This document shows positions 17,092 to 64,000 of a stretch of 64,000 nucleotides of DNA, piece by piece. The stretch is from the NCBI GenBank assembly GCA_038046805.1, contig JBBSVO010000006.1:172976-236975 (forward strand), read 5' to 3'. This DNA comes from Candidatus Micrarchaeota archaeon (lineage in GTDB: Archaea > Micrarchaeota > Micrarchaeia > Anstonellales > Bilamarchaeaceae). Position numbers and translations under genes: made by a program. The notes beneath the pieces are model-generated. The model searched no databases and had not been told where the DNA came from. It worked only from the letters and a program-made list of their open reading frames with translations. Numbering within the stretch: the first letter of the stretch is position 1; each line of letters begins with the position of its first letter.

Positions 17092-17230
17092 ACTATTCAT
17101 CGTCTCGCAAACTACGAAGTTGTTTTTTTTGACTTCGGATATTATGGATGGTCACCTCATATTAGTGGTTTGCTATAATGTGGCCTCTCTTTTTATTCTT
17201 TGTTTTTCATTATATCCCCAGTTGATTAGC

Positions 17231-18700
17231 ATGCAAATTGACAAACACTCCAAGTTCTCAGAATGGTATAATACGATTACAAAGGATGCCGAGCTGTGCG
17301 ACCTCAGATATAATCTTAAGGGCTTTATTGTTTTCATGCCATGGGCGGTCATGAGCATGAAGCGTATGTATTCCATTTACGAGCGCGAACTCGAAGCACA
17401 CGGGCACGTTCCTGCATTGTTTCCAGCACTTATCCCCGAGAGCAATTTTAAGGGGGAAAAGGAGCATGTTGAAGGATTTATTCCGGAAGTGTTTTGGGTT
17501 ACCGAAGCAGGCAGGGAAAAACTTGAGGAAAGATATGCGATGAGGCCGACAAGTGAAACTGCCATGTACCCGATGTATTCTCTCTGGATTCAGGGTTTGA
17601 AAGATTTGCCTCTCAAAATCTATCAGAGCTGTCAGGTGTGGAGACACGAAACCAAAGCCACAAGACCATTCATTCGTTCGCGTGAGTTCTGGTGGATCGA
17701 AGCACATGATGTTTTTGCTACTGAACAAGAAGCATTTGCACAGGTTAAAGAAGATATGGAAACTGCAGAGAAGATCATTCACGGTGTGTTCGGAGTCCCA
17801 TTTCTATTCTTCAAACGGCCGCAATGGGATAAGTTCGCAGGAGCAGATGATACTTATGCAGCAGACTGCATAATGCCGGATGGCCGTGCCCTTCAGTTGC
17901 CTTCAACACATATGCTTGGTCAGCATTTTTCAAAGGCTTTTGGCGTAAAATATATGGATGCTGAGGGGAAGGAACAGTATGGATGGCAGACGTGTTACGG
18001 TCCATGCATTTCAAGAATTTATGCTGCAGTAATCTCAGTTCACGGGGATGATAAAGGTCTTATTCTTCCGTTTGAACTTGCCCCAGTCCAGGTCGTAATC
18101 GTTCCGATTTACAAGGGTGAAAACAAAAAAATCGTTGATTCCGAGTGCGGAAAAATTGAAAAAATATTGCGGGAAAGCGGAATAAAAGTGAAGTTCGACA
18201 ATTCCGAGAACACGCCTGGCTTCAAGTTCAATCATTGGGAAATGAAAGGGGTTCCGCTTCGTGTTGATATAGGTGAGCGGGACATTTCAAACAAAAGCGT
18301 AGTTGTAGTGCGTCGCGATAACCGTGAAAAATCATTCGTGAAAGTTGCGGAACTTATTGAAAAAATAAACAAATCTGCAAAAGATGTTTCAAATTCCATC
18401 AGGGAAAAAGCCGATCAATGGTTCAAAGGCAAGGTCAATTCTGCAACAACTATGAAAGAGCTATCAAATATCCTCGAAACAACTGGTGGATTTGTACGTG
18501 TTCCGTTCTGCACTGATGAAATGGAAGGAGAAAAATGTGCGGATAAGATAAAGGAGGAAACCCATGCGAACATGCGCGGTTCTCTTTTTGAAGGAAGAGA
18601 AATCGGAAAAGAAGGAAAAGAAAAGCCAAAAGAATCCGAGAAATGCATCGCGTGCGGGAAAAAGGCGAAAATCTATTTGTATGCGGCGAGACAATACTAA
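17231..18700 (+). CDS. proS: proline--tRNA ligase (archaeal/eukaryotic type)
   Basis: Class II motifs (FRSREFWWIEAH) and FSEWYN start region. ORF 17120 carries a likely spurious N-terminal extension. Confidence 0.85.
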   Translation: MQIDKHSKFSEWYNTITKDAELCDLRYNLKGFIVFMPWAVMSMKRMYSIYERELEAHGHVPALFPALIPESNFKGEKEHVEGFIPEVFWVTEAGREKLEERYAMRPTSETAMYPMYSLWIQGLKDLPLKIYQSCQVWRHETKATRPFIRSREFWWIEAHDVFATEQEAFAQVKEDMETAEKIIHGVFGVPFLFFKRPQWDKFAGADDTYAADCIMPDGRALQLPSTHMLGQHFSKAFGVKYMDAEGKEQYGWQTCYGPCISRIYAAVISVHGDDKGLILPFELAPVQVVIVPIYKGENKKIVDSECGKIEKILRESGIKVKFDNSENTPGFKFNHWEMKGVPLRVDIGERDISNKSVVVVRRDNREKSFVKVAELIEKINKSAKDVSNSIREKADQWFKGKVNSATTMKELSNILETTGGFVRVPFCTDEMEGEKCADKIKEETHANMRGSLFEGREIGKEGKEKPKESEKCIACGKKAKIYLYAARQY

Positions 18701-18737: not shown

Positions 18738-18870
18738 AGCCCCGTCGTCTAGAGTGTCCCGTGTCTTGAGTCCAGCGTCCAGAATACGGAACGTTAAACG
18801 GGAGACAGACTTTGGTCAAGGATAGTGGACTTTGGATCCATTGACACCGGTTCGAATCCGGCCGGGGCTA
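18738..18870 (+). tRNA. tRNA-Gln(UUG) with ~59-nt D-loop intron
   Basis: 7-bp acceptor AGCCCCG/CGGGGCT, T-arm ACCGG-TTCGAAT-CCGGC, anticodon arm GTGGA-CTTTGGA-TCCAT. An extra ~59 nt lies between D-stem halves GTCT…GGAT. Confidence 0.55.
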
Positions 18871-18912: not shown

Positions 18913-19005
18913 TTATATTTTTGGGCCCGTGGTCGATACGTTTGCAAAAACGCGACAGCGGTAAGACGCTACTCTCACACAGTAGAGACACGGGGTTCAA
19001 TTCCT
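18913..19005 (+). tRNA. tRNA-Val(CAC) with short D-loop intron
   Basis: Acceptor GGGCCCG/CGGGCCC+A, T-arm CGGGG-TTCAATT-CCTCG, anticodon arm CTACT-CTCACAC-AGTAG. ~18 extra nt sit in the D region. Confidence 0.5.
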
Positions 19006-19126
19006 CGCGGGCCCAATTTTTCCTTTGTATTGCGTTTAGTGTCTTTGGTTTTAACTCTTGAAAAATTGGGAAGAAGTAAAATTTCAGCAGAAATTTTATA
19101 ACAGCTCATTTTTCTATTTATCTGCT

Positions 19127-36324: not shown

Positions 36325-37248
36325 ATGATGCAAATAACCTTTATCGGAACAGGCGGTTCTGCTCCAACTCCATCACGTGGTTTACCCGCAATAGCGATCC
36401 ATGCAAAGGAACTCATGCTTTTTGACTGCGGCGAGGGAACCCAGCGTCAGATGATGCGATATAAAGTCGGCTATGGTTCAGTGCGTGCAATTTTCATCTC
36501 TCATATGCACCTTGACCATTATCTCGGAATTTTCGGGCTTCTTGAAACACTGAGAATGAATTCTCCCTCACCAAAGCCACTTCACATTTTCGCTCCAGCG
36601 GCATTCTATGAAAAATTTTTGGCAATCAGCGGTTACAAAGCGGCAAACTACAAATTTGTTGAAATACATTCAATTCGCGTCGACGGTTCGAATTCGGAAA
36701 GTAAAATTTACGAAAATGATGAATTCGAAGTCAGTGCGTTTCCGGTAGAGCACGGAATGCGGGATGCGTTTGGTTTCATAATAAAAGAAAAGGACAAGAT
36801 AAAATTCCACGAAGAAAAAGCACACGGACTCGGATTAAAAGGAAAATTATTCCGCACGATTCAGGACAAGGGTGAGGTCACGGTTGGCGGAAAGAAAATC
36901 AGACTCAAGGAGGTTAGTTGGGTAAAAGAAGGCGCAAGGATAGTTTACACTGGAGACACAACCTCCTCAAAATCCGTAGCCTCTGCGGCAAAGGGAGCTG
37001 CCCTTCTTATCCACGACGCTACTTTTTCATCCGAATCCAATGCCTCCGAAACTGAAAAGCGGGAGCATTCCTCTGCAAAGGATGCTGCAGAAATCGCAAA
37101 AAAAGCTGGAGTAACTCAGCTTGTCCTCACGCATATAAGTGCGAGATATTCTGAAAAAGAAGACAAAACCAGGCTTTTGGAAGAAGCAAAAGCGGTTTTT
37201 TCATCAACAATCCTTGCGGAAGACGGTTTGGTAGTTGATGTAAAATAA
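36325..37248 (+). CDS. rnz: ribonuclease Z (tRNase Z)
   Basis: ITFIGTGGSAPT…HMHLDHYLG metallo-beta-lactamase motifs. Confidence 0.85.
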   Translation: MMQITFIGTGGSAPTPSRGLPAIAIHAKELMLFDCGEGTQRQMMRYKVGYGSVRAIFISHMHLDHYLGIFGLLETLRMNSPSPKPLHIFAPAAFYEKFLAISGYKAANYKFVEIHSIRVDGSNSESKIYENDEFEVSAFPVEHGMRDAFGFIIKEKDKIKFHEEKAHGLGLKGKLFRTIQDKGEVTVGGKKIRLKEVSWVKEGARIVYTGDTTSSKSVASAAKGAALLIHDATFSSESNASETEKREHSSAKDAAEIAKKAGVTQLVLTHISARYSEKEDKTRLLEEAKAVFSSTILAEDGLVVDVK

Positions 37249-42825: not shown

Positions 42826-43056
42826 AGCCTCAAGAGAGATTTGAACTCCCGACCTCCTCCTTTCTACACCCAATCTCCCCGTAAGAGGGGGTTTGGGCGG
42901 CATGAAAGGCACTAAGGGGGACGCTTCCCCCTTTGGGCCTTCTACAAGAGAGGCGCTCTACATCCAGAAGTCTTGCGTTTCGTATTCCGTGTTTTGAGCC
43001 GGATAAGACTCAGGACAATAGGACAAAACCCAAAACTTTCACTGAGCTATTGAGGC
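42826..43056 (-). tRNA. tRNA-Thr(UGU) with two introns (D-loop ~80 nt; canonical 37/38 ~85 nt), 231 nt total
   Basis: Acceptor GCCTCAA/TTGAGGC, TA-GCTC…GAGC D-stem, anticodon arm CCTCT-CTTGTA[intron]A-GGAGG, variable AGGTC, T-arm GGGAG-TTCAAAT-CTCTC. Confidence 0.5.
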
Positions 43057-45204: not shown

Positions 45205-45365
45205 TGTTAAACTTCTTCTTGCAGTCCACATGTTTTTAACAATAGCGGAACAAATTTTCAATTATGTCCGAAGCACCATTAGTTGAAATAGACGCGTCAA
45301 AGGGAGAAGGCGGTTTGTTTGAACGACGAATCGTCCAAAGCCCGCCTTCCCAAAAAGGCAATTGC

Positions 45366-46376
45366 ATGGTTGAAATAGACGCGTCAAAGGGAGAAGGCGG
45401 CGGTCAGATTATCCGAACTGCCCTTTCACTCTCAGCAATTACCAAAATTCCGGTTCGTATTTTCAATATTCGTGCTAAAAGACCTAATCCTGGCCTTCAG
45501 GCACAGCATCTTATGGCTTGCAAATCCGTTCGCAATATTTGTCGCGGAACTCTTGAACATGCGGAATTAAATAGCAGCGAACTTGTTTTTCATCCAGGGG
45601 AAATCGTCGGGGGCAATTATGAATTTGATATAGGGACTGCGGGTTCTGTTGTTCTTGTTGCCCAGACTTTGATTCCTATTCTTCTATTTGCAAACAAGAA
45701 AAGCACCGTTCGGATAAAGGGCGGTACTCATGTCATGAAATCTCCAAGTTATGATTATTTCGCAGAGGTCTTTGTTCCTGCTCTTCGGAAATTTGGAATC
45801 GCTATTAAAACCCGTGTCTTGAAAATCGGTTTTTATCCTGTTGGCGGAGGAGAAATAGAATTTGAAATAGAACCGAACCTTCCGCATGGTGTGGTGAATT
45901 GGGCAACTCCTGATAATTCTGAAGGAAAAAGAGTATTGATCCGCACTTCCTCGTCTTTGCCCGAACTCATCTCTATTCGCGAAAAGAAAATTTTTGTCCA
46001 GAATAATCTCGAAAATGTGCGGGTATTCTCCGACCAAACTGCTTCACAAGGAAACGCCATCTTGTTCTGGGAAGGTTTCTGCGGAGCATATTCTCTTGGA
46101 GAAAGGGGAAAACGTGCAGAAGTGGTTGCTCAGGAAGCTCTTGATGAATTCAGAAAAGAAGAATCTGCGCAAGCCGACGTAGATAAGCATCTTGCAGACC
46201 AGCTTCTTCTCTACGCGGCCCTTGCTGACGCTTCTGGCGAAAAGGCGGAGACGCGGTTCAAAACATCTGAAATAACGGAACATCTGCGTACGAATGCAGA
46301 AATAATAAAAAAATTCAATAATAAAAAAATAGAAATAAATGAAGAGAAAAAAGAGGTTTTTGTTGGATCACTATAG
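45366..46376 (+). CDS. rtcA: RNA 3'-terminal phosphate cyclase
   Basis: MVEIDASKGEGGGQIIRTALSLS matches the RtcA N-terminus. ORF 45264 adds a repeat-derived 34-aa extension. Confidence 0.8.
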   Translation: MVEIDASKGEGGGQIIRTALSLSAITKIPVRIFNIRAKRPNPGLQAQHLMACKSVRNICRGTLEHAELNSSELVFHPGEIVGGNYEFDIGTAGSVVLVAQTLIPILLFANKKSTVRIKGGTHVMKSPSYDYFAEVFVPALRKFGIAIKTRVLKIGFYPVGGGEIEFEIEPNLPHGVVNWATPDNSEGKRVLIRTSSSLPELISIREKKIFVQNNLENVRVFSDQTASQGNAILFWEGFCGAYSLGERGKRAEVVAQEALDEFRKEESAQADVDKHLADQLLLYAALADASGEKAETRFKTSEITEHLRTNAEIIKKFNNKKIEINEEKKEVFVGSL

Positions 46377-47816
46377 TTATTTGGTCGTCTCTGCTTTATT
46401 TAGTATTTCCTCCATATTTTTCTTGTCATCCTCGCTTATGTTCTGCCCGGTGGTGTTCTCCTTTGTAGGATTTTCGAACGGTTCATCACTTTGTTTTATC
46501 GTAGTCTTGTTTGTGGTGGCAAACTCCTCGCACATCGCAACCTTGGTGGAGTTCATTATACTGCTGCATATACTGGCGTTTTTCATTGTTCCGCCAAGTT
46601 CAATGTAACAATCGTCTTTTATGCCAGATTCGGTTACGAGTTTGCATATTCCAGTGTCTTTAGCCATTATTGCTAAATTGAGAATGCAGATATTCTTTCT
46701 TCCACCGGCAAATTCGCACAGTTCAAGGTTTTCTTTGTCCAATGCCATAGAATAAACGCATTTATCATGTTCTATTCCCTCTTTTTCAAGGCATGCTATA
46801 AACGCATTCTGGTCATCGCTTGCAGCCTGAAGCAGGGTGACGGCCTTTCCGGCAGTCAGGTTCTCCGGAACTATTATCTCCTTATCATATTTCCAATCGG
46901 ATGAAACAAGATTCCATTTACTCGTGCGATCCTTTCCAAGATAATTATATGCGAATTCCTTAGAGATAATTTCGTTCTTTTCTTCGTTATAACATAGTTT
47001 ACTTTCGTATCTCTTTGGATCTCCCTGTCTTACATTAAGGCTCATCGCCTCGCTTAAAGTAAGGTTTGAATAGTCTATAACAAAGTTTACTTCCGAGCAT
47101 TTTTCTCCTTTTTCCGTGGTTTCAATAACCTCCTCAAACGTAATGGTGTTTTTTCCCTTCAGGAATTCAAATGTTTCCTTTGCAGAATCTATCTTTTCGT
47201 TGCTGAAAAATTGCCCTCCAATCACCTTTAAGTATTTCGAGAGGGCTGCACTGGTGTTTTTTACAGAACTGCAGGCATATTCATCTTCATATTCTACACA
47301 CATTACCGTGTCGTTTTCCGCAAAATAAATATTTCTTTCAGATATTGGAGTTTCTATAGTTACCTGGCGCACTGCTCCGTTCTTGCGAAGTGTTGTCCTC
47401 ATGACATATTCATCAAGCGTTTCGTCATAGGCATATTCGTAATCTGTTGCGCCCTGGCCAACAAGAAGGCTTTTTTCATATATTTCAAGCGCATTGCCTG
47501 TGCTATCTTCTCCTTCACCACCGTGTTTTTGAAGGTTCGGAAGTGCATACATATAAACCGCATAACCTGCGGCAAGGAAAACGATAATCCCTAAAACCAC
47601 CAGCAAAATATTTTTTACATCTGTCATAAGATAACCTCTGAACATTGGCTTTTTATATTTCTCATCTGTGCTTAAAAAGTTATTGCAGGGGACAGGATTT
47701 TCAATTACCACGGGAGTATCACGCCTACGTTTTTCTTTTGGCGTGTCAGGAACGACCGACAAAACGACGCTTCGTTTTGTGGTCCATAAAACGTTACGAC
47801 GTTTTATCGGACGCAT
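46377..47816 (-). CDS. membrane-anchored extracellular hypothetical protein (Cys-rich C-terminal region)
   Basis: TM anchor ILLVVLGIIVFLAAGYAVYMY. The true start is probably the internal M (MTDVKN…). Confidence 0.4.
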   Translation of the reverse strand: MRPIKRRNVLWTTKRSVVLSVVPDTPKEKRRRDTPVVIENPVPCNNFLSTDEKYKKPMFRGYLMTDVKNILLVVLGIIVFLAAGYAVYMYALPNLQKHGGEGEDSTGNALEIYEKSLLVGQGATDYEYAYDETLDEYVMRTTLRKNGAVRQVTIETPISERNIYFAENDTVMCVEYEDEYACSSVKNTSAALSKYLKVIGGQFFSNEKIDSAKETFEFLKGKNTITFEEVIETTEKGEKCSEVNFVIDYSNLTLSEAMSLNVRQGDPKRYESKLCYNEEKNEIISKEFAYNYLGKDRTSKWNLVSSDWKYDKEIIVPENLTAGKAVTLLQAASDDQNAFIACLEKEGIEHDKCVYSMALDKENLELCEFAGGRKNICILNLAIMAKDTGICKLVTESGIKDDCYIELGGTMKNASICSSIMNSTKVAMCEEFATTNKTTIKQSDEPFENPTKENTTGQNISEDDKKNMEEILNKAETTK

Positions 47817-57574: not shown

Positions 57575-57946
57575 TTACACTAATTTCAACCCTTTCACAA
57601 ACTCAAAATCCTTTCTATTTTTTGTGAAAAGGAATGCGTTGTTTTCAATACACGTTGCCGCAGTAATGACATTATCCACTGAAAATTCCTTCCCTCGGTC
57701 TCTTGCCTCGTCTATTATTCTCGCAGCAGTCTCTGCGGTTTTTCTTCCAAAATCAAGAATGCTTATGTTATTTATGAAAGCAGAAAGAGCCTCCCCGTTT
57801 TTTACTCCAACCATAATCTGAAAAAGCGAATTTGAGGTCATACATATCTCTTCCCTGTCTGCGTAATACTGTATTTTTTTAACGATTGTTTTGTCCCCGC
57901 GCAGGAAATCAACAATAACGTCCGTATCAAGGCAGATTTTTTCCAT
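57575..57946 (-). CDS. vapC: PIN-domain toxin VapC
   Basis: ICLDTDVIVDFL N-terminal motif. Confidence 0.65.
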   Translation of the reverse strand: MEKICLDTDVIVDFLRGDKTIVKKIQYYADREEICMTSNSLFQIMVGVKNGEALSAFINNISILDFGRKTAETAARIIDEARDRGKEFSVDNVITAATCIENNAFLFTKNRKDFEFVKGLKLV

Positions 57947-57988: not shown

Positions 57989-58192
57989 CTATTTGTTCCT
58001 CTTCATCCTTTCAATTACGCGCGTATCAATATCCAATTCGCTTATGCTGCCTGCAAATACCAATATGTTCCGTTTTTCTTCTCTTTCTTTAACCAGATAT
58101 CTAAGCACTTCGCTAAAGCTCATTCCCTTTGCTCGTTTGATTCGGTATAATTCCGCGTACACATCGTCCATTATCGTGATAACTCTGACCAT
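57989..58192 (-). CDS. putative antitoxin (VapB/AbrB/SpoVT-like)
   Basis: 67-aa protein immediately upstream of vapC (MVRVITIMDDVYAEL). Confidence 0.45.
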   Translation of the reverse strand: MVRVITIMDDVYAELYRIKRAKGMSFSEVLRYLVKEREEKRNILVFAGSISELDIDTRVIERMKRNK

Positions 58193-58415: not shown

Positions 58416-59486
58416 ATGGAAGACTTGGTAAAATCCGTTATGGGCGAAACTGTAGCTCCCTCTACGAGCGATGATGGAAGCTCCGAAACAATTAGAATTG
58501 TTACAATCGGAGTTGGTGGTGCTGGAAACAATACTGTAAACAGACTCATAAAATCAGGAGTAAAAGGTACAGAGCTTGTTGCAGTAAACACAGACAAGCA
58601 GCACTTGAATATTGTCCATGAAAGGGCAAGAAAGGTTTTGATCGGCCGATCAGTTACAAAAGGACTTGGTGCAGGTGGTTATCCGGAAGTCGGTGAAAAA
58701 TCTGCAGAAGTTGACAGGCCATTGCTTGAAAAAGAGCTTGAAGGTGCTCACCTTGCATTTGTTTGCGCAGGTATGGGTGGTGGTACTGGTGGTGGTGCTG
58801 CCCCAGTTGTTGCACAGGTTGCAAAAGAGCAAGGCGCAATTGTAGTTGCTATGGTTACCTACCCATTTGCTCTCGAAAGAGCAAGAAAAAAGAAAGCAGA
58901 AGAGGGTATCCAGAAATTGAAGAAATTCTGCGACTCGGTAATTATTCTCGACAACAACAGATTGGTTCAGATGTTCCCGAACCTGCCAATGACAGAAGCA
59001 TTTGCAGTTGCAGATGAAATCCTTGCAAGGGCAATCAGCGGTCTTGTATGGACGATTACCCAACCATCTTTGATTAACATTGACTTTGCAGATGTTCGCT
59101 CAATTATGCAGGGCGGCGGAGTCGGATTTATTGCAGTTGGCGAAGGAAAAGGCACAGACAAGGTTCGCTCAGCATCCGAAGGTGTCATAAAGAACAGGTT
59201 GCTTGACGTTGACTTTGAAGGTGCAAAAGGTGCATTAATCCACATCTCTGGCGGTGCAGATCTTACACTTGGTGACGCAATAAAAGCCGGTGAAATGATC
59301 ACAGAGAAAATGGATGCAGAGGCTAACGTAAAATGGGGCGCAAGAATAATGCAGAATTACGACGGTAAATTGGAAATTGTCGCAATAGTTACCGGAGTAA
59401 AAGGAGCGAGCATTGTCGGCGGCTCAACTGACGAAGAGCCAGCATCTATGGGTGCATTCAGCTCTGACCTGGAAATTCTCGGATAA
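58416..59486 (+). CDS. ftsZ: cell division GTPase FtsZ
   Basis: GVGGAGNN…GMGGGTGGGAAPVVAQ tubulin signature. Confidence 0.9.
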   Translation: MEDLVKSVMGETVAPSTSDDGSSETIRIVTIGVGGAGNNTVNRLIKSGVKGTELVAVNTDKQHLNIVHERARKVLIGRSVTKGLGAGGYPEVGEKSAEVDRPLLEKELEGAHLAFVCAGMGGGTGGGAAPVVAQVAKEQGAIVVAMVTYPFALERARKKKAEEGIQKLKKFCDSVIILDNNRLVQMFPNLPMTEAFAVADEILARAISGLVWTITQPSLINIDFADVRSIMQGGGVGFIAVGEGKGTDKVRSASEGVIKNRLLDVDFEGAKGALIHISGGADLTLGDAIKAGEMITEKMDAEANVKWGARIMQNYDGKLEIVAIVTGVKGASIVGGSTDEEPASMGAFSSDLEILG

Positions 59487-59624
59487 ATTTTTATCCGGAA
59501 TTTCTTTCTTCTTTTTTCTTATTATTTTCTCTCCTTTTCTTCGTTTTTATTCCGCTTTTTTATGATGTTGTTTTTCCGCTTTGTTTAATCTCTTTAAAAA
59601 TTCTTTTGCGCACATATTCTTGTT

Positions 59625-59996
59625 ATGAGCAGAGTTACGGTACCTCCATTTACCAAGGTAAGCCGGACTGGCAGTAAACAGACTCCCGATGTTACGTCCG
59701 ACCAGTCCGGAACCAAACCTCATTCATGTTGGGCAAAATTCTGGGGACTTTTTAATCGGGAGTTGTCGCAGTCCAATATCCGTTCATTGGTTTTGAGCGG
59801 AGACGCTGATGGTTTGGAAAGACTGATTGAAAAATATAGATGTGATTCCGGAGAGCTTGATACGATAAATACTACTTTATGGAATTTATTGAATCTAAAA
59901 GGTCGTATTCCTTCCCAGAATGAAAGAGCTATCATAAACAGGGCCAGAGATGTCATACGAAAAATTCAGGAACTGGGAACATATTCGAGCGGTTAA
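59625..59996 (+). CDS. hypothetical protein
   Basis: ORF only. Confidence 0.3.
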   Translation: MSRVTVPPFTKVSRTGSKQTPDVTSDQSGTKPHSCWAKFWGLFNRELSQSNIRSLVLSGDADGLERLIEKYRCDSGELDTINTTLWNLLNLKGRIPSQNERAIINRARDVIRKIQELGTYSSG

Positions 59997-60034
59997 AATT
60001 TCAAATTACAAAACTGGGAACAAAGAAGATAAAT

Positions 60035-60212
60035 TGGGCCCGTTGTGATTTGAACACAAGACCTTTCGATTTCTATTGCATTTGTGCGATATCAGTCGAA
60101 CGCTCCAACCGGATTGCTCGTCCCTTCGGACTTTTTCTGCCTCAGGACTTTTCCGCTGGAGCGCTTTTGTCCTTTGGCTTCTGAAGTCAAAAGGGCCCTG
60201 AGCTACGGGCCC
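60035..60212 (-). tRNA. tRNA-Ile(GAU) with two introns (D-loop ~83 nt; canonical 37/38 19 nt), 178 nt
   Basis: GGGCCCG-TA-GCTC…GAGC-G-TTCGA-CTGATA[19 nt]A-TCGAA-AGGTC-TTGTG-TTCAAAT-CACAA-CGGGCCC-A. All stems pair canonically. Confidence 0.6.
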
Positions 60213-60425
60213 GCCAATACTAACTGTTTAATTGCATTACTTATTCTGCCTTGTAACAAAGTAAGTCGCAAGGAGCACGATTCCCACCATCGAAAGGGAG
60301 AAAACTACTTCTTCTATCATGTGAATATTTGTATCCATTCCCTTTTTTAAAGTGTGTCCCGACACTTTCCACAATTTGCGAATAAACAATAACTATATAA
60401 ACTTATATACTATATAAATACATAG

Positions 60426-61090: not shown

Positions 61091-62215
61091 GTGAAAATCG
61101 CTATTATTTCTGATACTCATTTGGGTTATGCCCGTTTTGAGGATGATGCAGCCGAGCAGGCAGAATCAGCATTTCTTGATGCAGCAAAAAAAGCAGATCT
61201 TATTCTTTACGCCGGAGATGTTTTTGACGTGAAAGTCCCGCGTTTGGAAACAATGAGGCACGCGGTTGACATGCTCAGGAAAGCAGGCGCGTCCAGAGTT
61301 CCAATCTACGCAATCCACGGAAACCACGAAAGAAGAAGCAAGGACATGGTTAATCCTGTTCAGCTCTTGGCGACTGTTGGGGTTCTCAATTACCTGCACG
61401 CAAGCGGAACAATTTTTGAAAAAAATAATGAAAGGATTTTCATTTTCGGGATGGGGAGCGTGCCAGAGGATTTAGCCGCAACTGCATTGAAGACCGCGGT
61501 AGGGCGGGTTGAAGTGCCGAGTGGAATGCTTAGAATTCTTATGCTTCACCAGACTATAAAGGATTTTTCGCTTGGGGGAGAGGACGATCTCACGATGGAT
61601 GAAATTTCAGGCCTACCTTTTGACTTAATTGTGAACGGACACATCCACAAGACGATAATTAATAACGAAGAAAATATGTTAATCCCGGGAAGTACTGTCA
61701 TCACCCAGCTTAAGGAGGATGAAACTGCCCCGCGCGGGTACATACTTTATGATACCTCTTCCAAAAAACCAGAATTTGTTGAAATCCCGCACCGAAAGTT
61801 TCTTTACGCGGAATTGAAATTCTCTTCTGCGAGTATGGTTGAAGTGCGAAATGTAGTAATTGAGAAGCTTGCGGAACTGAAAAAATTGGCAGATGGGGCG
61901 AAAAAACAACCAATAATTCGCATAAAACTTTCTGGAACTCTTAAGGAAGGAATCCGTCCATCAGATTTATTCATCTCAGCAGATGGGGCATTTATAGATA
62001 ATCAGTTGAACCGTAACGATGCGGGGATGAAACTTTCTCTTCCTTCCACTCCATCCGGAAGAACCGGAACAGTAACTGAAATAGCAATTTCTCTTCTGCG
62101 GAATAAAATCGGGGACAAAATGAAGCTGCTGGATCCAGCAATACTTTTTGATAAAGTTTCTGGCGATGTTGAATCTGCAGCGGAATATGTAAACTCAGCC
62201 GGTAATTCTCAATAA
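61091..62215 (+). CDS. Mre11/SbcD-family metallophosphoesterase (DNA repair nuclease-like)
   Basis: IAIISDTHLG…GDVFD…IHGNHE…GHIH calcineurin-like motifs. Confidence 0.65.
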   Translation: MKIAIISDTHLGYARFEDDAAEQAESAFLDAAKKADLILYAGDVFDVKVPRLETMRHAVDMLRKAGASRVPIYAIHGNHERRSKDMVNPVQLLATVGVLNYLHASGTIFEKNNERIFIFGMGSVPEDLAATALKTAVGRVEVPSGMLRILMLHQTIKDFSLGGEDDLTMDEISGLPFDLIVNGHIHKTIINNEENMLIPGSTVITQLKEDETAPRGYILYDTSSKKPEFVEIPHRKFLYAELKFSSASMVEVRNVVIEKLAELKKLADGAKKQPIIRIKLSGTLKEGIRPSDLFISADGAFIDNQLNRNDAGMKLSLPSTPSGRTGTVTEIAISLLRNKIGDKMKLLDPAILFDKVSGDVESAAEYVNSAGNSQ

Positions 62216-63316
62216 TGCATCTGCAAACTCCTTTGCATTTGCAGCGCTTTTCAAAGAAACATCCGAGAAATGGGTTCTCATGGTTTTGAATCCAAGTGAA
62301 TTCAATTCTTCAATTATCTTGCTCATTTTCGGAACGCTCTTCATGGAAATTCTTCTGCACATCCTGTGAACATTGTAATATCCAGGTGGCATTTCAATTT
62401 CTCCTTCAATCAGTGCCAGAATTTTTTCTATCTCTTCAATATCCTCATAATCTTTTTTTCCGTTGAGTTTTCGCATTTTTGAGAGTGTTTCTCCGTCGTT
62501 TAGCCTCCCAATCCACAGTGGTCCACCCCATCTGGTTTCATTTCCGCAGTTTCCGCATTTTTCAATTATTTTTCCCCAACTTTCTCTCCACCCACATTTT
62601 TCGCAATAAGAAATATAACCAAAGTTCCTTATGTTTTCGTCACTTTTTGCCGCACTACTTTCGCACTTTACAATGACCTTGAGATAATGCCTGTCGGAAA
62701 GAGAAACGAGCGGACTTATTCCAAAATTAAATTCCGAGGCTGCCTCGGCAATTCTCCTAATCAGAATCCGCAATCCGTTTTCGTGCGTAAACTCATTATT
62801 CAGGCTTTTTGCATGATAGTTCTTTAGACAAGCGGTCTTCTCATGGCCGCACAGGACGGCAGTATCTGTTGCAGTAGCGGATAGATAAAATGTTTTCGTT
62901 CCGCTCTGGTTCATGCGGAAGAATACCGCGAATAAATAGGGGGCAGGTGTTCCAAAAGGATCAAGTTCTATGAAGTTAAATTCAAAGTCTGTTGCATCAG
63001 CCACGAGAAATTTTACTATATCATCATTCACAATTTTTGCCTTTCTTGCCGATATTTTGTTTTTTGCCGCATTCTTTTTTGCAAGTGCAATTGCATTTTT
63101 GCTCCAGTCAAGGAAAGTAACAGAACTTACGTTCTTGTTTTCTTTCGCATATCGTATTCCGCGTATTCCGCTTGCGCAGAATCCATCCAGCACATTAAGT
63201 TTTTCTCCAATTGCACCAACTGCAAGGGAGCTGAAGCTGCGGCAGAATCGCATCTCTGGATTGTAGAATATTTTATCTGCTGAGAATATTTTGCTTTCTT
63301 CTTCCATATTTCTCAC
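62195..63316 (-). CDS. trm1: tRNA (guanine26-N2)-dimethyltransferase Trm1
   Basis: FYNPEMRFCR motif plus C-terminal zinc finger (CEKCGW…CGNCG). Confidence 0.8.
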   Translation of the reverse strand: MRNMEEESKIFSADKIFYNPEMRFCRSFSSLAVGAIGEKLNVLDGFCASGIRGIRYAKENKNVSSVTFLDWSKNAIALAKKNAAKNKISARKAKIVNDDIVKFLVADATDFEFNFIELDPFGTPAPYLFAVFFRMNQSGTKTFYLSATATDTAVLCGHEKTACLKNYHAKSLNNEFTHENGLRILIRRIAEAASEFNFGISPLVSLSDRHYLKVIVKCESSAAKSDENIRNFGYISYCEKCGWRESWGKIIEKCGNCGNETRWGGPLWIGRLNDGETLSKMRKLNGKKDYEDIEEIEKILALIEGEIEMPPGYYNVHRMCRRISMKSVPKMSKIIEELNSLGFKTMRTHFSDVSLKSAANAKEFADALLRITG

Positions 63317-63319
63317 GTT

Positions 63320-64000
63320 TTATTTTTCTTCATCAATAAATTCTCTCATTGCAACCGTTGCATAGCTTCCTGCCTGTAGTGAGAACGTAAATATGCCAGC
63401 AATATTATCTTCTTCATCGGTCTTCATATCAAATTCGAAATCCTTTAACGGTGCAAGAAGCGTTCTCAAACTTCCGTTAGAGCTTATTTCCGGGATTTTC
63501 TTCACACGAAAATCGCTTCTTCTGATTCCAAGTTCCTGCAATACTCTTTCCTCGCGTTCGTTTGTTTCTGTTTCATAACCGATTAGTTTGCCGACAATAT
63601 ATCTGCCTTCGTCAGTATCTTTTTTATTTATATCCGGAAATCCGAATTCGTTTTCTCCGCAAAAATATTCCCCCTCTTCGCAGGATATTTCTCCATTCTT
63701 TATCCGTTCTGAAATGCAAATGTTAAATATATAGCTTTGTAACGCATGAACAAACATCAAAAGGATATTACGCGGCAATCTTCTAAGTGCTCCGATATAA
63801 TCTTCCGGAGTTTCTGCCAAATGTGCAAGCATTGAGCGTTCAAGACGGAGGTGTTTTGGAAAGTTTTTCAGCGCAGCGGCGTAATCTTCTGTCTCAAGCA
63901 ATTGTTTTCTTGCCGTGCTTGCAGAATCATTTTTCTCTCCATCCGAGTTTGTCAGGTATTCGGTTACTGCCCCCTCAAAATCTCCTTTTACAATCCGTTC
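63320..64000 (-). CDS. truD: tRNA pseudouridine synthase TruD/Pus7, C-terminal part (gene continues beyond window)
   Basis: C-terminal …AGSYATVAMREF matches the TruD tail. The reading frame stays open to the window edge. Confidence 0.55.
   Translation of the reverse strand, partial: ERIVKGDFEGAVTEYLTNSDGEKNDSASTARKQLLETEDYAAALKNFPKHLRLERSMLAHLAETPEDYIGALRRLPRNILLMFVHALQSYIFNICISERIKNGEISCEEGEYFCGENEFGFPDINKKDTDEGRYIVGKLIGYETETNEREERVLQELGIRRSDFRVKKIPEISSNGSLRTLLAPLKDFEFDMKTDEEDNIAGIFTFSLQAGSYATVAMREFIDEEK

Follow-up and report, generated by a model that had tools for sequence, protein, structure and literature searches.

A tRNA-Ile(GAU) gene with two putative archaeal introns, one of them a long D-loop intron, in a Candidatus Micrarchaeota archaeon

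In a 64-kb stretch of DNA from a Candidatus Micrarchaeota archaeon (the window, meaning the whole of the stretch analyzed here), the minus strand at 60212..60035 encodes a precursor tRNA-Ile(GAU) interrupted by two inserts, one of 84 nt in the D-loop and one of 19 nt in the anticodon loop. The locus is very probably a functional gene, whose precursor of ~178 nt would be transcribed, cleaved by a splicing endonuclease and ligated, so that the two inserts would be removed as protein-spliced archaeal introns. The exon and intron boundaries, the motifs at the splice sites, the orthologs without the D-loop insert and the recurrence of the same architecture in other tRNA genes were observed directly, and it is on these that the proposal is built. 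A first-pass annotation of the same DNA had read the locus as a single tRNA-Ile(GAU) gene carrying a canonical intron and another in the D-loop, and this was borne out by in silico splicing, by the insert-less orthologs and by bulge-helix-bulge (BHB)-type motifs at both inserts, with further support from a matching D-loop architecture in the Thr, Gln, and Val genes of the window. Position p of the pre-tRNA (pre) corresponds to window coordinate 60213-p, and the gene consists of the following parts:

60198..60212, minus strand: exon 1 (pre 1-15), with the acceptor 5' strand GGGCCCG, U8 and A9, the D-stem 5' strand GCUC, and A14 and G15
60114..60197, minus strand: intron 1 (pre 16-99), 84 nt between nucleotides 15 and 16, in the D-loop
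60090..60113, minus strand: exon 2 (pre 100-123), with the D-loop remainder UCCGGUUG, the D-stem 3' strand GAGC, G26, UUCGA, and CUGAUA
60071..60089, minus strand: intron 2 (pre 124-142), 19 nt at the canonical 37/38 site, UCGCACAAAUGCAAUAGAA
60035..60070, minus strand: exon 3 (pre 143-178), with A38, UCGAA, the variable loop AGGUC, the T-arm UUGUG-UUCAAAU-CACAA, CGGGCCC, and the discriminator A
60015..60034, minus strand: T-rich tract directly downstream of the gene, AUUUAUCUUCUUUGUUCCCA

Read along the minus strand, the layout is GGGCCCG-UA-GCUC-AG[84 nt]UCCGGUUG-GAGC-G-UUCGA-CUGAUA[19 nt]A-UCGAA-AGGUC-UUGUG-UUCAAAU-CACAA-CGGGCCC-A. In exon 2, UUCGA is the 5' strand of the anticodon stem, and the loop segment CUGAUA holds the anticodon GAU and A37. 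All four stems that had been named for this gene (acceptor GGGCCCG/CGGGCCC, D GCUC/GAGC, anticodon UUCGA/UCGAA, and T UUGUG/CACAA) are present on this strand with canonical pairs. The CCA end is not encoded, and the gene ends in the discriminator A73. The T-rich tract that follows is a plausible archaeal oligo-T terminator; such tracts follow most of ten compared tRNA genes, including all four found in the window.

The default run of ARAGORN returned zero tRNA calls in the entire 64-kb window, and Rfam at its gathering threshold gave zero tRNA matches over the same length. In E-value mode, Rfam showed a weak tRNA match (16.2 bits) at 60035-60124, which is the part downstream of the large insert. 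When both inserts were deleted in silico, the remaining 75 nt formed a canonical cloverleaf and were called by ARAGORN as a full-length tRNA-Ile(gat). This spliced 75-mer carries the invariants U8, A14, G18G19, the G15:C48 pair, G26, U33, A37, the UUCAAAU T-loop, and A73. The first-pass annotation had held that contradictory tRNA-finder output would count against its exon boundaries. Such output does exist, as the intron mode of ARAGORN (-i) called a SeC(tca) with a 110-nt intron and, after removal of the D-loop insert, a Ser(aga). Both calls were rejected because the intronless ortholog (locus L082, described below) reads GAU, and the contradiction is an artefact of intron placement; the Ser(aga) miscall arose because the second intron was placed regardless of any BHB. 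As a control for chance, a pipeline was run in which loci with a 7/7 acceptor stem and a T-arm were collected, D-loop segments bounded by a 4-bp helix were deleted, and the products were submitted to ARAGORN. Three loci emerged from the real window, while 20 dinucleotide-preserving shuffles gave none.

Exact matches to the neighboring FtsZ protein led to four contigs, each from a different sample (ENA ERZ1292622, ENA ERZ2470813, Logan SRR32696696, and Logan SRR32696700), and every one of them has the gene with both inserts. The gene sequence is identical in three of the four, and the fourth, a contig in which several neighboring genes were called in pieces, differs only by two 1-nt homopolymer indels. 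The exons are colinear, on one strand and within 178 nt, and the gene is thus neither split nor permuted.

The boundaries of the D-loop insert were placed by comparison with orthologs. A metagenome scan with the 3' exon yielded four tRNA-Ile(GAU) orthologs (loci L081, L082, L083, and L084), and the MAFFT alignment of the window gene with these four opened an 84-column gap exactly at columns 16-99, that is, at 15/16. The insert therefore comprises pre 16-99 (window 60197-60114) and is 84 nt long; the D-loop insert of the first-pass annotation stands, while its length of ~83 nt is corrected by one nucleotide. In none of the four orthologs is the D-loop interrupted at all. L082 is intronless, with the same acceptor stem, T-arm and GAU anticodon as the window gene, L081 and L084 have a single intron at 37/38 (45 and 80 nt, respectively), and L083 has a 50-nt intron at 37/38 together with a 15-nt intron at 30/31, so the intron content of tRNA-Ile differs across the five lineages. 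The exons are far more uniform. After splicing, the window tRNA and that of L081 are identical at 73 of 75 positions, all 15 nt of exon 1 are invariant in the four orthologs, and a 28-nt core of exon 3 is identical in these four metagenomic sequences. The anticodon stem varies on both strands between ortholog groups with pairing kept (UUCGA/UCGAA, CUACG/CGUAG, and CUGCU/GGCAG), which is what a functional gene family would be expected to show. The tRNA-Ile/FtsZ synteny was not seen in relatives among 80 FtsZ loci; L033 alone has the 3' exon, clipped at the locus edge.

The 30/31 intron of L083 (L083:5252-5391), which lies in the anticodon stem, has by reading of its sequence a mini-BHB of its own, with the central helix CGUU/GACG, the bulges CG↓U and AA↓A (arrows mark the cuts), the inner helix GC/GC, and an AAAA loop.

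In the BHB motif, a central helix of 4 bp (H) lies between two 3-nt bulges, each cut after its second nucleotide (PMC3239211). In the D-loop of the window gene, the two strands of H are:

60200..60203, minus strand: H 5' strand GCUC, which is the D-stem 5' strand (pre 10-13), followed by the 5' bulge AG↓G
60116..60119, minus strand: H 3' strand GAGC (pre 94-97), which repeats the D-stem 3' strand within the intron and precedes the 3' bulge AA↓U

The minimum free energy (MFE) fold of the precursor pairs GCUC(10-13) with GAGC(94-97). All four pairs of H are Watson-Crick, each splice site lies two nucleotides 3' of H, and the sites given by this register coincide with the boundaries derived from the orthologs. 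The motif is a relaxed BHB of the HBh' form. Folded alone, intron 1 forms a long imperfect hairpin (-30.9 kcal/mol, z = -3.6). A strict-looking hBHBh' was also noticed at 60101..60181 (four pairs in each of the outer, central, and inner helices, G-U counted), with cuts after pre 32 and pre 112. It was taken as a coincidence because its use would destroy the tRNA and ~0.1 such motifs are expected by chance. Permissive enumeration of BHBs gave ~90 candidate pairs in 187 nt and was uninformative.

In the 19-nt intron, the anticodon stem serves as the outer helix (5/5 pairs), the 3' bulge is AA↓A, and the inner helix GCA/UGC is capped by CAAA. The central helix CUGA/AUAG has three of four pairs, the 3-bp part being formed by C32, U33, and G34. 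In L083 and L084, AUAG is replaced by UCAG, and H is complete (4/4). The motif is relaxed and hBH-like. Other 19-nt deletions also give Ile(gat), none of them with a BHB-like register, and the position of this insert after nucleotide 37, as originally proposed, is thereby confirmed as 37/38. The strict hBHBh' form, in which both 3-nt bulges are closed by helices of at least 2 bp, is present in neither intron. Strict hBHBh' is required by the α4 and α'2 endonucleases, relaxed forms being accepted only with a broad-specificity enzyme.

Four tRNA genes (Ile, Thr, Gln, and Val) were recognized in the 64 kb, and every one of them is interrupted. All carry an intron in the D-loop, in three cases at 15/16 and in one case two nucleotides further 3'. 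The features of the other three genes are:

43056..42826, minus strand: tRNA-Thr(UGU), 231 nt
43039-42962, minus strand: Thr D-loop intron, 78 nt, two nucleotides further 3' than 15/16, with H UCAG/CUGG, the 5' bulge UG↓A, and an 8-bp inner helix
18738-18871, plus strand: tRNA-Gln(UUG), whose only intron is one of 60 nt in the D-loop at 15/16 (18753-18812), the anticodon loop being uninterrupted
18923-19015, plus strand: tRNA-Val(CAC), with a 21-nt D-loop intron at 15/16 (18938-18958)

In each of the Thr, Gln, and Val motifs, H is built from D-arm 5' nucleotides and the 3' end of the intron; an inner helix is present, and the 5' bulge is a clean one of 3 nt. The Gln motif is closer to a full BHB, because it has three outer-helix pairs. 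H has 4/4 pairs in seven D-loop introns, namely the Ile, Thr, Gln, and Val introns of the window and three from relatives that were retrieved by requiring such a helix (L083 Thr, L056 Val, and L035 Val(GAC)). In the same order, the H sequences are GCUC/GAGC, UCAG/CUGG, GUCU/AGAC, GUCG/CGAC, ACUC/GAGU, GUCC/GGAC, and GUCG/UGAC. As H differs in sequence in each of the seven, the intron end covaries with the D-stem. The geometry seen in Ile, with splice sites two nucleotides 3' of H, recurs in the other six.

Some further features of these genes were recorded. The Gln gene has a mismatched T-stem pair, and the Gln and Val genes, with Val ~50 nt downstream, may be co-transcribed. The Thr gene also has an anticodon-loop insert of ~81 nt (42942-42862), whose H has only two of four pairs at 37/38 and whose boundaries are provisional. 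In the relative L035 (927-1196), the tRNA-Val(GAC) carries a D-loop insert of 140 nt with H GUCG/UGAC and no inner helix in the expected register; this insert may be a composite or nested intron.

From these structures, a course of splicing can be proposed. In the precursor, the D-stem 5' strand GCUC (10-13) would pair with the decoy GAGC at the 3' end of the intron and not with the true D-stem 3' strand. The 5' splice site would then lie in the bulge AG↓G, adjoining the long hairpin of the intron itself, and the 3' splice site, AA↓U, would follow the helix by two nucleotides in a motif that no outer helix closes. EndA, which on phylum-level expectation is probably of the broad-specificity ε2 type, would cut four sites, two in the D-loop (AG↓G and AA↓U) and two in the anticodon arm (UA↓U and AA↓A). 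The three exons would be joined by a ligase of the RtcB type, after which the true D-stem could form and CCA would be added.

Several observations weigh against a functional, spliced gene. In the D-loop motif, the inner helix in strict register opens with G17-C93 alone, and a C·A mismatch separates this pair from the next seven; the MFE fold has a 4x2 internal loop in place of this start, and an outer helix is missing. The H of the 19-nt intron has one A·A mismatch adjoining the 5' bulge. BHB-type splicing of relaxed motifs needs an RtcB ligase together with a suitable EndA (ε2, (αβ)2, or an α4 that bears a loop), and neither an EndA (tRNA_int_endo) nor an RtcB domain was found in the 50 window open reading frames (ORFs) scanned against Pfam, which are nearly all the non-overlapping window ORFs of at least 150 aa. 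Moreover, the L083, L056, and L035 examples are not independent for H, given how they were retrieved, so that only the four window genes are unbiased for a 4/4 helix.

Some of these points, notably a relaxed rather than strict splicing motif, together with the lineage-specific nature of an insert that all four orthologs lack, would also suit a pseudogene, inactivated by an 84-bp D-loop insertion that is never removed, with another copy supplying tRNA-Ile(GAU). Gene copies were counted within the 64-kb window only, and an uninterrupted tRNA-Ile(GAU) may be present elsewhere in the genome. A pseudogene is nevertheless improbable, since the three exons are intact and give a spliced product identical to that of the ortholog at 73 of 75 positions, and the 3' end of the insert offers the D-stem 5' strand a perfect 4-bp complement at exactly the BHB distance, as in the three other D-loop inserts of the window. 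The rough chance of this in all four genes is <1e-4, assuming ~0.02 per 4-bp helix (G-U allowed) and 3-4 permissible registers per gene. The insert ends have in their sequence neither target-site duplications nor terminal inverted repeats, and if interruption meant inactivation, every tRNA gene found in the window would be dead. Because the DNA is metagenomic and the locus is invisible to tRNA finders in default mode, it could also be suspected that the insert is absent from the real genome and arose through faulty assembly, chimera formation or strain-level noise; the recovery of the gene with both inserts from four samples effectively refutes this, and its probability is negligible.

The strong structure of the 84-nt insert (z = -3.6) raises the further alternative that it is another kind of element not handled by EndA, such as a self-splicing group I/II intron, a box C/D guide RNA, or the remnant of a mobile element or virus attachment site. 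Some euryarchaeal tRNA-Trp introns do host box C/D RNAs. Group I introns are reported to occur in archaea (PMC6125680). No Rfam family matched the insert, even at E <= 10, and there was no snoRNA-type match. At 84 nt, the insert is in our judgement far too short for a group I/II ribozyme core, which takes up at least a few hundred nucleotides. By inspection, no C box (RUGAUGA) is present within one mismatch, the nearest having at least two, and there is a single CUGA. Searches of the window and of the remaining Micrarchaeota loci retrieved gave no second copy of the intron, and a 23-mer from it had no match in a viral collection. The exact BHB geometry is explained only by recognition by EndA, and an element of another kind is very improbable. 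A functional gene with two protein-spliced introns accounts best for the locus, in our assessment, and is the reading kept below.

As to the kinship of the introns, a comparison of the Ile D-loop intron with those of the Thr and Gln genes had been suggested by the first-pass annotation. No detectable relationship of the Ile intron to either was found; it is the Thr and Gln introns that are related to each other. The comparison of the Ile intron with those of Thr, Gln, and Val and with 13 introns of relatives gave no significant similarity, the best case being a 10-mer in common with L084 (z = 4.3, below the null maximum). The D-loop introns of Thr (43039-42962) and Gln (18753-18812) are similar, with a local score of 23 against a null maximum of at most 22 (z = 5.5), a hint that introns may have spread from one tRNA gene to another, unrelated one in the same genome. 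Among relatives, the canonical introns of L017 Val(GAC) (375-548) and L081 Ile(GAU) (249-368) contain a segment identical at 24 of 27 nt (z = 12), and the 15-mer hairpin CTTTTTAGGAAAAAG is common to the D-loop intron of L035 and the canonical intron of L017. By these sequence similarities, related intron modules are present at different genes and positions in different genomes. Two orthologous tRNA-Arg(UCU) genes with near-identical flanks differ in that L047:505-675 has a 96-nt GC-rich anticodon-loop intron and L059:533-607 has none, a difference that points to recent intron gain or loss. It is possible, and we put it forward only tentatively, that the D-loop 15/16 position, with the D-stem 5' strand paired to an intron-borne decoy, is a preferred landing site for mobile introns in groundwater Micrarchaeota, and that introns are gained and lost and also transfer between positions and between unrelated tRNA genes. 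Such a process has been described so far, as far as could be checked, for Thermoproteales only (PMC4090602). The hints of it here are the shared intron segments, the D-loop introns of all four window tRNA genes, and the differences in intron presence between close relatives.

The host is a Candidatus Micrarchaeota (DPANN) archaeon from groundwater. The FtsZ at 58416-59486 is 80-90% identical to the FtsZ of dozens of metagenome-assembled genomes (MAGs) labelled Candidatus Micrarchaeota, Micrarchaeia, or Bilamarchaeaceae. The remaining gene content is archaeal as well, with an ATP-dependent DNA ligase, a Mre11-like phosphoesterase, Trm1, TruD, a proteasome alpha subunit, the ribosomal proteins S15 and S3Ae, a Rrp4-like protein, and an S-layer protein. 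The following neighboring genes were located:

17120-18700: prolyl-tRNA synthetase
36325-37248: tRNase Z-like metallo-beta-lactamase
45264-46376: RNA 3'-phosphate cyclase RtcA
62195-63316, minus strand: Trm1 methyltransferase
63320-63901, minus strand: TruD pseudouridine synthase

An ORF of 479 aa adjoining RtcA (46377-47816, minus strand) had no Pfam match. Just upstream of FtsZ, Pfam identified a pair consisting of a VapB antitoxin and a PIN-domain (VapC-like) protein, at 57575-57946 and 57989-58192, both on the minus strand. The tRNA-Ile gene itself is contained in a region of ~940 bp (59487-60425) with no called gene in the public contigs. Two mechanical ORFs there, at 59625-59996 (plus strand, 123 aa) and 60084-60350 (plus strand, 88 aa, antisense to the tRNA), are absent from the gene calls of the source pipelines.

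For annotation, the window holds at least four tRNA genes where default ARAGORN and the Rfam gathering threshold give none, and inferences on completeness and codon usage in Micrarchaeota and other DPANN will be wrong unless BHB-aware finders are used. The locus also offers a clean, well-bounded, long (84-nt) D-loop HBh' intron with insert-less orthologs, and a natural substrate on which the reading of a motif lacking an outer helix by endonucleases of relaxed specificity could be studied. With it, the association of Micrarchaeota with disrupted tRNA genes reaches past the acidophilic ARMAN lineage, and the current understanding of tRNA splicing is left unchanged.

An interrupted tRNA-Ile is an expected feature of Micrarchaeota, and the gene is of a known kind, differing in the intron site (15/16), in the length of the D-loop intron, and in the host lineage. 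The D-arm intron sites listed in the reviews consulted are 20/21 and 22/23. The closest arrangement is that of the pre-tRNA-Glu(UUC) of Methanopyrus kandleri, in which a relaxed HBh' D-loop intron (20b/21) and a canonical 37/38 intron are likewise combined in one tRNA (Kaneta et al. 2018, PMC5829648). Unlike in M. kandleri, the window intron is at 15/16, and its H is formed by the D-stem 5' strand and an intron-borne decoy; the hosts differ too, one being a Micrarchaeota archaeon and the other a hyperthermophilic methanogen. In vitro, cleavage of the M. kandleri D-loop intron by its own enzyme, which has no specificity loop, was poor, and the same study suggested from incomplete tRNA sets in new DPANN genomes that there are undetected disrupted genes ("unidentified disrupted tRNA genes") (PMC5829648).

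Experimental precedent for the proposed mechanism comes from Aeropyrum pernix, whose pre-tRNA-Thr(UGU) D-loop intron was spliced in cells and by recombinant (αβ)2 EndA (Hirata et al. 2011, PMC3241643), that is, by EndA alone, with no guide RNA or modification. A. pernix is a crenarchaeon with an (αβ)2 enzyme, and its D-loop intron was described as a BHB, whereas that of the window is a relaxed HBh'. In the Thermoproteales, tRNAs with as many as three introns, spread over many sites, and similar introns in unrelated tRNA genes have been reported (Fujishima et al. 2010, as relayed in PMC4090602). Here also the Thr and Gln D-loop introns are alike, and the introns of L017 Val and L081 Ile share their 24/27 segment. 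The Thermoproteales are of another superphylum, however, and for the Ile D-loop intron itself none of the introns examined was significantly similar.

Within the phylum of the host, 56% of the tRNA genes of Candidatus Micrarchaeum acidiphilum (ARMAN-2) are disrupted, some of them by non-canonical or multiple introns, and its ε2 three-unit EndA cleaves strict and relaxed motifs in vitro (Fujishima et al. 2011, PMC3239211). The window resembles ARMAN-2 in its many interrupted tRNA genes, non-canonical sites, multiple introns, and relaxed motifs (PMC3239211, PMC3488258, PMC12397907). The ARMAN-2 examples highlighted in that report are different, being T-loop introns (53/54 and 59/60) and a 25-nt canonical intron (PMC3239211), and the window organism belongs to another lineage, closest to MAGs labelled Micrarchaeota or Bilamarchaeaceae.

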